40,867 nucleotides of DNA from a phage: the sequence record PQ821741.1; one strand, given 5' to 3'. The stretch's first letter is position 1. The number at the start of each line of letters is the position of its first letter. The notes under the pieces are model-generated. The model was not told where the DNA came from. It did no database searches and was given only the letters and a program-made list of their open reading frames with translations. This document shows, piece after piece, positions 9,521 through 10,564 of this stretch. Made by a program: the position numbers and the translations under genes.

Positions 9521-10056
9521 TGGGATGCATAGCGTGCTTAGAGAAAGACGACCGTTACCCACATACCTGTAATAAAGGAGCTAACGATATGACCGAACGT
9601 GAACAAGAGATTATCATTAAGTTAATAGACAATAACGAAGGTCGCCCAGATGATTTGAATGGCTGCGGACTACTCTGCTCTAATGTCCCTTGTCACCTCT
9701 GCCCAGCAAATAACAATCAAAAGATAACCTTAGGTGAAATCCGAGCGATGGACCCACGTAAACCTAAACTGGATAAACCAGAGGTAACTCCTACAGATGA
9801 CCAGCAAGCAACCGAGTCAATCGAAGGTGTCACTAAGCCTTCCCATTACATGCTGTTCGACGACATTGAGGCTATCGAAGTGATTGCCCGTTCAATGACT
9901 CGTGAGCAGTTCAAAGGTTATTGCTTCGGGAACATCTTAAAGTACAGACTACGTGCTGGTAAGAAATCCGAACTGGCTTACTTAGAGAAAGACATGGCTA
10001 AGGCCAACTTCTATGGAGAACTCTATGAGCAACATAAAGACAAATGCTATCGGTAA
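9520..10056 (+). CDS. 1.7: Gene 1.7 nucleotide kinase
   Basis: 178 aa; TGATG overlap with 1.6; matches T7 gp1.7. Confidence 0.85.
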   Translation: MGCIACLEKDDRYPHTCNKGANDMTEREQEIIIKLIDNNEGRPDDLNGCGLLCSNVPCHLCPANNNQKITLGEIRAMDPRKPKLDKPEVTPTDDQQATESIEGVTKPSHYMLFDDIEAIEVIARSMTREQFKGYCFGNILKYRLRAGKKSELAYLEKDMAKANFYGELYEQHKDKCYR

Positions 10057-10204
10057 TCCACCTGATGACAACATGTCAAGTGACTTCACGTCTTGCTCCG
10101 AGTGGTGTCACGCCAAGTGGTCACAAGCACTGGACCGTGGGGACCAGAATGCTGCAAATGTTTATCTCGAATTGTACAACCTGTGGAAATCAAGAGGTCA
10201 ATAA
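10025..10204 (+). CDS. 1.8: Gene 1.8 protein
   Basis: ...DFTSCSEWC...[10 protein letters not shown]; start inferred from GGAG RBS (10013 or 10073 also possible). Confidence 0.6.
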   Translation: MSNIKTNAIGNPPDDNMSSDFTSCSEWCHAKWSQALDRGDQNAANVYLELYNLWKSRGQ

Positions 10205-10369
10205 CTATGCTATCGGTAATCCACCTGATGACAACATGTCAAGTGACTTCACGTCTTGCTCCGAGTGGTGTCACGCCAAGTGGTCACAAGCACTGGACCG
10301 TGGGGACCAGAATGCTGCAAATGTTTATCTCGAATTGTACAACCTGTGGAAATCAAGAGGTCAATAACT
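10044..10369 (+). repeat. Exact tandem duplication, 163-bp unit (10044-10206 and 10207-10369)
   Basis: 166 nt identity at offset 163 with atg microhomology; copy 2 is a startless second 1.8 body. Confidence 0.95.
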
Positions 10370-10564
10370 ATGTCAAACGTAAACACAGGTTCACTTAGTG
10401 TGGACAATAAGAAATTTTGGGCTACCGTAGAGTCCTCTGAGCATTCCTTTGAGGTTCCAATCTACGCGGAGACCCTAGACGAAGCTCTGGAGTTAGCTGA
10501 ATGGCAATACGTTCCGGCTGGCTTTGAGGTTACTCGTGTGCGACCTTGCGTGGTCCCGAAGTAA
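10370..10564 (+). CDS. 2: Gp2, inhibitor of host RNA polymerase
   Basis: 64 aa [64 protein letters not shown]. Confidence 0.92.

Follow-up and report, generated by a model that had tools for sequence, protein, structure and literature searches.

Does an exact repeat at the border between two early genes of a T7-like phage add anything to the genome that carries it, and how could such a repeat have arisen? The window analyzed here is a single contig of 40,867 nt (PQ821741.1), a complete genome-length T7-like phage (Teseptimavirus) with T7-type promoters and the full T7 gene order. Known phages are approximately 90 to 92% identical to it over long stretches. At the border of genes 1.8 and 2, a sequence-only reading had described a 163-bp tandem duplication with a distinctive junction, two novel open reading frames (ORFs), and a displaced gene 2 start. 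We examined this locus, compared it with its relatives and with the rest of the contig, and weighed the explanations that could account for it.

The duplication itself is borne out at every position. A repeat search finds the two copies, 10044 to 10206 and 10207 to 10369, identical at 163 of 163 positions with a spacing of 163 (Table 1), and they lie head to tail in the same orientation with no spacer and zero divergence. Tandem Repeats Finder delimits the repeat to 10044-10372, with a period of 163, 2.0 copies, 100% matches, and a score of 658. An offset scan likewise returns the 166-nt exact identity at offset 163 that had been claimed, consisting of the 163-nt unit followed by the ATG of gene 2. 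This start codon was said to be the junction microhomology, and the same triplet is indeed present at 10044-10046, 10207-10209, and 10370-10372. Position 10043, just before copy 1, is A, whereas position 10206, just before copy 2, is T; therefore, the junction homology is exactly 3 nt (ATG). As a refinement of the earlier description, the start of the unit falls within the gene 1.7/1.8 overlap. The unit thus contains the last 13 nt of gene 1.7 with its stop, the body and stop of gene 1.8, and, in its 3′ part, the Shine-Dalgarno sequence of gene 2 (AAGAGGT) with a 2-nt spacer (CT), ending one base before the ATG. Zero exact repeats of at least 40 nt at offsets of 30 to 3,000 were found when 308 kb of related T7-like DNA was put through the same scan. 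The 166-nt exact run, together with the lack of anything comparable in these relatives, rules out a chance repeat.

Table 1. Coordinates of the 163-nt duplication, the genes and ORFs at the gene 1.8/2 border, the other duplications in the contig, and the terminal repeat
Feature	Position	Strand	Details
Copy 1 of 163-nt unit	10044..10206	+	Repeat search, Tandem Repeats Finder
Copy 2 of 163-nt unit	10207..10369	+	100% identical to copy 1
Duplication junction	10206/10207		Sequence AATAACTATGCTATCGG
ATG of gene 2	10370..10372	+	Third occurrence of the junction triplet
Gene 1.7	9520..10056	+	178 aa; nucleotide kinase, DUF3310; intact, last 13 nt in copy 1
Gene 1.8, first copy	10025..10204	+	59 aa; intact; alternative start at 10013 gives 63 aa
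63-aa junk ORF	10207..10398	+	Copy 2 in a wrong frame; last 29 nt lie in gene 2
107-aa fusion ORF	10044..10367	+	Copy 1 out of frame, copy 2 in the gp1.8 frame
Gene 2	10370..10564	+	64 aa; host RNA polymerase inhibitor; intact, own RBS in copy 2
410-nt offset	1582-1953 = 1992-2363		372-nt exact repeat; gp0.3 C-terminus, 0.4-like gene, RNase III-like site
214-nt offset	8743-8956 / 8957-9170		Exact; junction homology 1 nt
T7 promoter TAATACGACTCACTAAAGGAGG in 214-nt unit	8901-8922 and 9115-9136		
117-nt offset	16542-16658 / 16659-16775		Inside gene 5; exact, in frame; junction CGA
269-nt offset	17274-17542 / 17543-17811		Exact; junction GGT
66/68-nt event	35726-35861		Inside gene 17; imprecise, 2 mismatches, out of register
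613-nt offset	35931-36228 = 36544-36841		Inside gene 17; 298-nt segment, then two different tail-fibre tips
Terminal repeat	207-364 = 40594-40751		158 nt

We considered whether the repeated segment carries a control element or a gene that could benefit from being present twice. The region gave no terminator-like site, and the coding strand of the 163-nt unit no promoter-like one; the nearest T7 promoter lies downstream of the unit, at approximately 10563. The unit contains no Rfam family, and its fold z-score of -0.26 indicates no unusual structure. A regulatory repeat, whether of a promoter, a terminator, a structured RNA, or an iteron array, was rejected because the unit lacks any such element. 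The case for a functional gene duplication fails on the structure of the second copy, in which the 1.8 body is missing its start codon and, counted from 10025 or 10013, the first 6 or 10 whole codons, respectively. Moreover, the length of the unit is not a multiple of 3 (163 = 3 × 54 + 1), which puts the 1.8 body of copy 2 one base out of frame. Paralogue formation also begins with the doubling of a coding segment, but here no second functional gene results.

The reading frames around the junction are as had been predicted. Gene 2 starts at the second ribosome-binding site (RBS), at 10370, and the product read from there is 98% identical to T7 gp2 and matches the Pfam family RNA_pol_inhib (E=4e-28). 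ORF translation confirms that the RBS and ATG of copy 1 open a wrong-frame ORF of 63 aa (10207-10398), and that a 107-aa ORF starting at 10044 crosses the junction and gains the true C-terminus of gp1.8, ending at 10367. The longer of these ORFs stops 2 nt before the gene 2 ATG and has no obvious Shine-Dalgarno sequence upstream. A Pfam search of the new ORFs at the junction returned no family. The product of the first gene 1.8 copy is 49% identical to T7 gp1.8; its orthologues in related contigs are 59 aa long and carry PF26839 in precomputed annotation, and for gp1.8 itself that family is missing from the Pfam version searched. The 163-nt duplication therefore adds no working gene and duplicates no control element, and the coding capacity of the region is fully kept. 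Its one effect might be on translation, as ribosomes loaded at the duplicated RBS would cross the true gene 2 start in another frame and may mildly disturb translation of gene 2.

Comparison at the 1.8-2 junction establishes which arrangement is ancestral. The unit is shared by eight relatives, each of which has a single copy, at 91 to 98% identity; these are Yersinia phage vB_Yep_15, represented by two overlapping loci, and six Logan contigs. Near the duplication vB_Yep_15 is also the closest local match (96.9%). When one copy is removed, the sequence aligns without gaps over 1018 of 1018 positions to both vB_Yep_15 (96.6%) and contig L008 (95.8%). Both breakpoint ATGs are already present in the relatives (5 of 5 aligned). 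No record in the phage collection spans the duplication junction, which, with the single-copy state of the relatives, rules out a conserved feature of the group. The 31-mer across the junction is absent from the IMG/VR and JGI metagenomes. Given the single-copy relatives and this absence, the duplication is derived and private to the contig. The contig as a whole is not present in the phage collection, IMG/VR, or a large assembly index; the last of these also lacks the exact gp1.7, gp15, and gp16 proteins. Contigs that encode the exact gp2 or gp2.5 belong to other strains, which do not have the 163-nt duplication.

This duplication is one of seven in the contig, six of which have letter-perfect repeated arms. 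The six others (66/68, 117, 214, 269, 410, and 613 nt) are each single-copy in T7 and vB_Yep_15, and all seven offsets fall within 68 to 613 nt. Between the copies of the 410-nt event lie 38 nt (1954-1991) in which the beginnings of gene 0.5 and of the next gene are loosely blended; this spacer matched nothing in IMG/VR, the phage collection, or genomes of E. coli. Repeated in the 214-nt unit are the C-terminal end of ligase, the hairpin of the early terminator, a T7 promoter, and the first part of a small ORF; the junction joins 9 codons of that ORF in frame to the last 39 ligase codons. The 117-nt event doubles residues 475 to 513 of the T7 DNA polymerase, beginning with the motif A catalytic aspartate (DASGLELR...), so that gp5 is 743 aa long. 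The 269-nt unit begins 25 codons before the end of gene 5 and reaches through codon 57 of gene 5.5, and both genes keep intact copies. As a separate observation, the smaller offsets (68, 117, 163, 214, and 269) are nearly evenly spaced, with gaps of 49, 46, 51, and 55 nt. In a post hoc simulation, such even spacing arises in about 0.3% of draws of five uniform sizes (P about 0.003), and it may be a coincidence.

Neither the junctions nor the positions of these events look random. The four clean junctions have homologies of 3, 3, 3, and 1 nt, and homology of at least 3 nt at three of them has P=5e-4 under random breakpoints. Both unmerged contig overlaps with arbitrary breakpoints and randomly planted duplications would give homology at the level of chance, and this value argues against each. 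With regard to placement, the block of genes 6 to 16 is free of events (P=0.019 for seven random events on the T7 map), and for seven random events to break no more than one essential gene, P=0.077. In four of the events the unit straddles a gene border, and each gene there keeps an intact copy, while genes 5 and 17 are hit by events within them. When the fold-back at the contig start, described below, is counted as well, 7 of 8 events are direct and 1 of 8 is inverted. This non-random placement suggests some filtering for viability and favors an origin in vivo.

The explanation that we consider best, and to which we give about even credence, is that the 163-nt repeat is a very recent, functionless tandem duplication, primed by microhomology and formed by template switching during phage replication. 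A growing strand would have copied ...AATAACT-ATG, the start of gene 2, and left its template; it would then have re-paired through these three bases with the ATG located 163 nt upstream (10044-10046) and recopied 163 nt. The switch would presumably have occurred in vivo on the phage replisome. Recombination between the 163-nt arms would be expected to remove the duplication soon, making it an unstable state. Long coexistence of seven duplications, six of them with perfect arms, is unexpected given the recombination activity of T7. The seven events perhaps arose on different molecules. In that case the junctions would be real products of template switching within a mixed population of phage DNA, and an assembler may have threaded several minority ones, lethal ones included, into a single path; this reading would accommodate the signs both for and against a clean genome. 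As it stands, the contig probably does not represent one viable genome, because gene 17 has a premature stop and the motif A region of gp5 is duplicated.

Gene 17, which encodes the tail fibre, gives a view of how such switches might proceed. As assembled, the gene is broken: the ORF that begins at 35053 ends at 35734-35736, inside the copy at 35726-35793 (versus 35794-35861). Removal of 35728-35793 and 35931-36543 restores a gp17 of 463 aa that is collinear over its full length with P0121 (65% identity), a natural T7-type, collar-tipped fibre and the closest full-length natural protein. As these deletions restore an intact product, the native gene 17 was sound. The native fibre (35053-37123) combines a T7-type N-terminal domain, TSETNAK heptad repeats, and a tail-collar (PF07484) tip of the lambdoid/P2/Mu type. 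Its heptads are encoded by 21-nt units, 3.3 of which are letter-perfect at 35647-35716, and no DNA match was found for the low-complexity part of the gene.

Within the 613-nt event lies DNA of another origin. Positions 36172 to 36543, which hold the first of the two collar-type tips, are identical at 372 of 372 positions to the E. coli P1-like plasmid pEC213_2 (NZ_CP061103.1, 1681-2052); they take in the end of the plasmid tail-fibre gene and 54 nt from the start of its tail-fibre assembly gene (tfa). A Mu-like prophage locus is 99.7% identical to the same stretch, and of 5426 complete E. coli genomes only 1 carries the full 100% match. The entry into the E. coli sequence lies within 57 nt of perfect identity between phage and E. 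coli, and the return to phage sequence, 613 nt upstream of the point of departure, is made without homology. Homologous entry followed by a homology-free upstream return is a copy-choice signature involving real host DNA. In such a process, a strand would enter a second template through homology, copy from it, and restart upstream on the first template; a restart without the excursion would leave a plain tandem duplication, such as the 163-nt one. The interval 35931-36841 is either a captured host tail-fibre tip or a phage-host chimera.

The main alternative is that the duplication was made during amplification or assembly, by a template switch in the tube (multiple-displacement or PCR amplification) or through rare chimeric reads that deep coverage raised past the error threshold of the assembler, which then passed once through each loop, and that the phage itself is single-copy. 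We regard this as possible but on the whole unlikely. Several features of the record point in its direction. The contig wraps with a period of 40,387, its first 480 nt being repeated at its end (1-480 versus 40388-40867), and T7 nucleotide 1 corresponds to window position 207. Apart from one mismatch, 33-480 and 40420-40867 are the same, an untrimmed overlap of 448 nt; the mismatch is at position 54 (G versus A), where T7 and vB_Yep_15 agree with A. The overlap and its mismatch indicate a raw contig built from heterogeneous or error-bearing reads. In addition, the first 37 nt are the exact reverse complement of natural sequence at 40384-40420 (T7 39568-39604), left of the right terminal repeat. 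The strand switch of this fold-back occurs at a 6-nt inverted repeat (AGGGAT/ATCCCT), and T7 and vB_Yep_15 have the forward version. Processing of T7 concatemers involves a hairpin end near this region, a subject to which work by Chung et al. in 1990 is said to be tied, and the fold-back could be either a replication intermediate or a library fold-back.

Other evidence for an artefact comes from the events themselves. An essential gene is broken and an active-site motif of the polymerase is doubled, as expected if no filtering took place. Homologies of 3 nt are short for the known repeat-mediated events of T7 in vivo and typical of polymerase chimeras formed in vitro, and the observed range of 1 to 3 nt fits the latter. 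The range of offsets, 68 to 613 nt, would also be close to that which a short-read assembler resolves as loops. Guidance on phage assembly cautions that very deep coverage turns recurrent errors into false branches and brings rare recurring sequences into the assembly graph (PMC5923482). Exact copies, few-base homologies, a fold-back at the end, and disregard for genes 5 and 17 are all traits shared with amplification chimeras and false assembly duplications. On the other hand, the events in this contig spare the long essential structural genes and are nearly all direct, unlike such chimeras. The bias of their placement toward viability (P=0.019 and 0.077) is not expected of events in vitro. 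Chimeras from multiple-displacement amplification are mostly inverted, whereas 7 of 8 events here are direct. Simple unmerged contig overlaps are excluded by the microhomology (P=5e-4). Finally, a de Bruijn or overlap assembler is unable to invent a junction with 3-nt homology, so junction reads must exist in some number.

It is improbable that the sequence was edited or generated by a model, with earlier segments recopied into later ones. Consistent with that idea are the absence of the exact gp1.7, gp15, and gp16 from the large assembly index and of the junction from IMG/VR and JGI, the unmatched 38-nt spacer at 1954-1991 that blends two natural contexts, the imprecise and out-of-register copy in gene 17, and the oddly even offsets from 68 to 269 (post hoc P about 0.003). 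Generative genome models are also reported to over-produce direct repeats, and bacterial output of Evo 2 is enriched in them (10.64898/2026.01.17.700093). Against it, the 372-nt match is to an allele present at full length in 1 of 5426 complete E. coli genomes, and recall of such an allele by a model is unlikely. By statistical measures the base genome does not differ from natural relatives, both in private substitutions at otherwise invariant sites and in the lengths of its exact matches to natural contigs, and random planting would not yield the junction microhomologies.

We consider it very improbable that the duplication is real, fixed, and selected, either because a second site for ribosome loading and an upstream ORF that crosses the gene 2 start alter the expression of gene 2 or because a longer DNA is favored. 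A duplication of similar size that included a promoter did rise to the majority in evolved T7 (PMC3737178). Gene 2 and its RBS are untouched, and the genome with all duplications, approximately 40,545 bp, fits the T7 capsid: an engineered T7 record of 40,606 bp exists, so length is not limiting. However, the unit contains no promoter, terminator, Rfam family, or unusual structure, the second 1.8 copy is not expressible as such, and the duplication occurs in no relative. With zero divergence, no persistence is demonstrated, and the genome collapsed of its duplications, approximately 38.7 kb, is ordinary for a group whose members span 37 to 41 kb. Least probable of all, and hardly to be credited, is that all seven events belong to one lineage that switches templates unusually often, with its own polymerase, internally duplicated, as a candidate cause; the 39-residue in-frame duplication in gp5 does begin at the motif A aspartate and end beside the fingers helix, and, if this were true, the contig would be one snapshot of a "duplication-mutator" phage, recording both tandem duplication and the capture of a host prophage tip via 57 nt of homology.

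Tandem duplication by template switching, the explanation we prefer, has a counterpart among T7-group phages. In the evolved population T7:LME_2000, Cecchini et al. (2013) found a 154-bp tandem duplication at a population frequency of at least 50% (PMC3737178). Promoter phi13 lay within the repeated segment, for which a regulatory effect was proposed by the authors (PMC3737178). Both cases are head-to-tail duplications of approximately 150 to 160 bp at a gene border in a phage of the T7 group; the one in T7:LME_2000 arose de novo and was present in the population consensus. Unlike the phi13 duplication, the 163-nt unit has no promoter, terminator, or structured element. It is thus another T7-group tandem duplication of a known size class, without regulatory content.

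A second point of reference is the work of the Studier and Masker laboratories, which reportedly described illegitimate deletion and duplication events that occur in T7 during replication or recombination, between short direct repeats at least about 5 nt long. Deletion has tandem duplication as its reciprocal product. Compared with those events, only 3 nt are held in common at the junction here, and seven events in one sequence go far beyond what those studies describe. Our search of the literature on repeat-mediated deletion in T7 returned nothing directly usable.

Taken alone, the 163-bp duplication is of little consequence, as it creates no additional gene and probably will not last. In practice it serves as a flag of quality: with seven duplications, a broken tail-fibre gene, and a duplicated polymerase motif, the contig is unfit for use as an annotated or reference genome before confirmation by reads. 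If reads do confirm the junctions, they would document a T7-like phage undergoing an unusual burst of template switches, and the capture of a fibre tip from a P1-like E. coli plasmid would bear on how lytic phages change their host range.

One further feature of the contig was noted away from the duplications. Between genes 1.2 and 1.3, an ORF of 145 aa (7363-7800) encodes a protein that resembles T7 gp3.8 (50% over 76 residues) and gp7.7. This ORF probably specifies an HNH homing endonuclease; T7 lacks one at the corresponding site.
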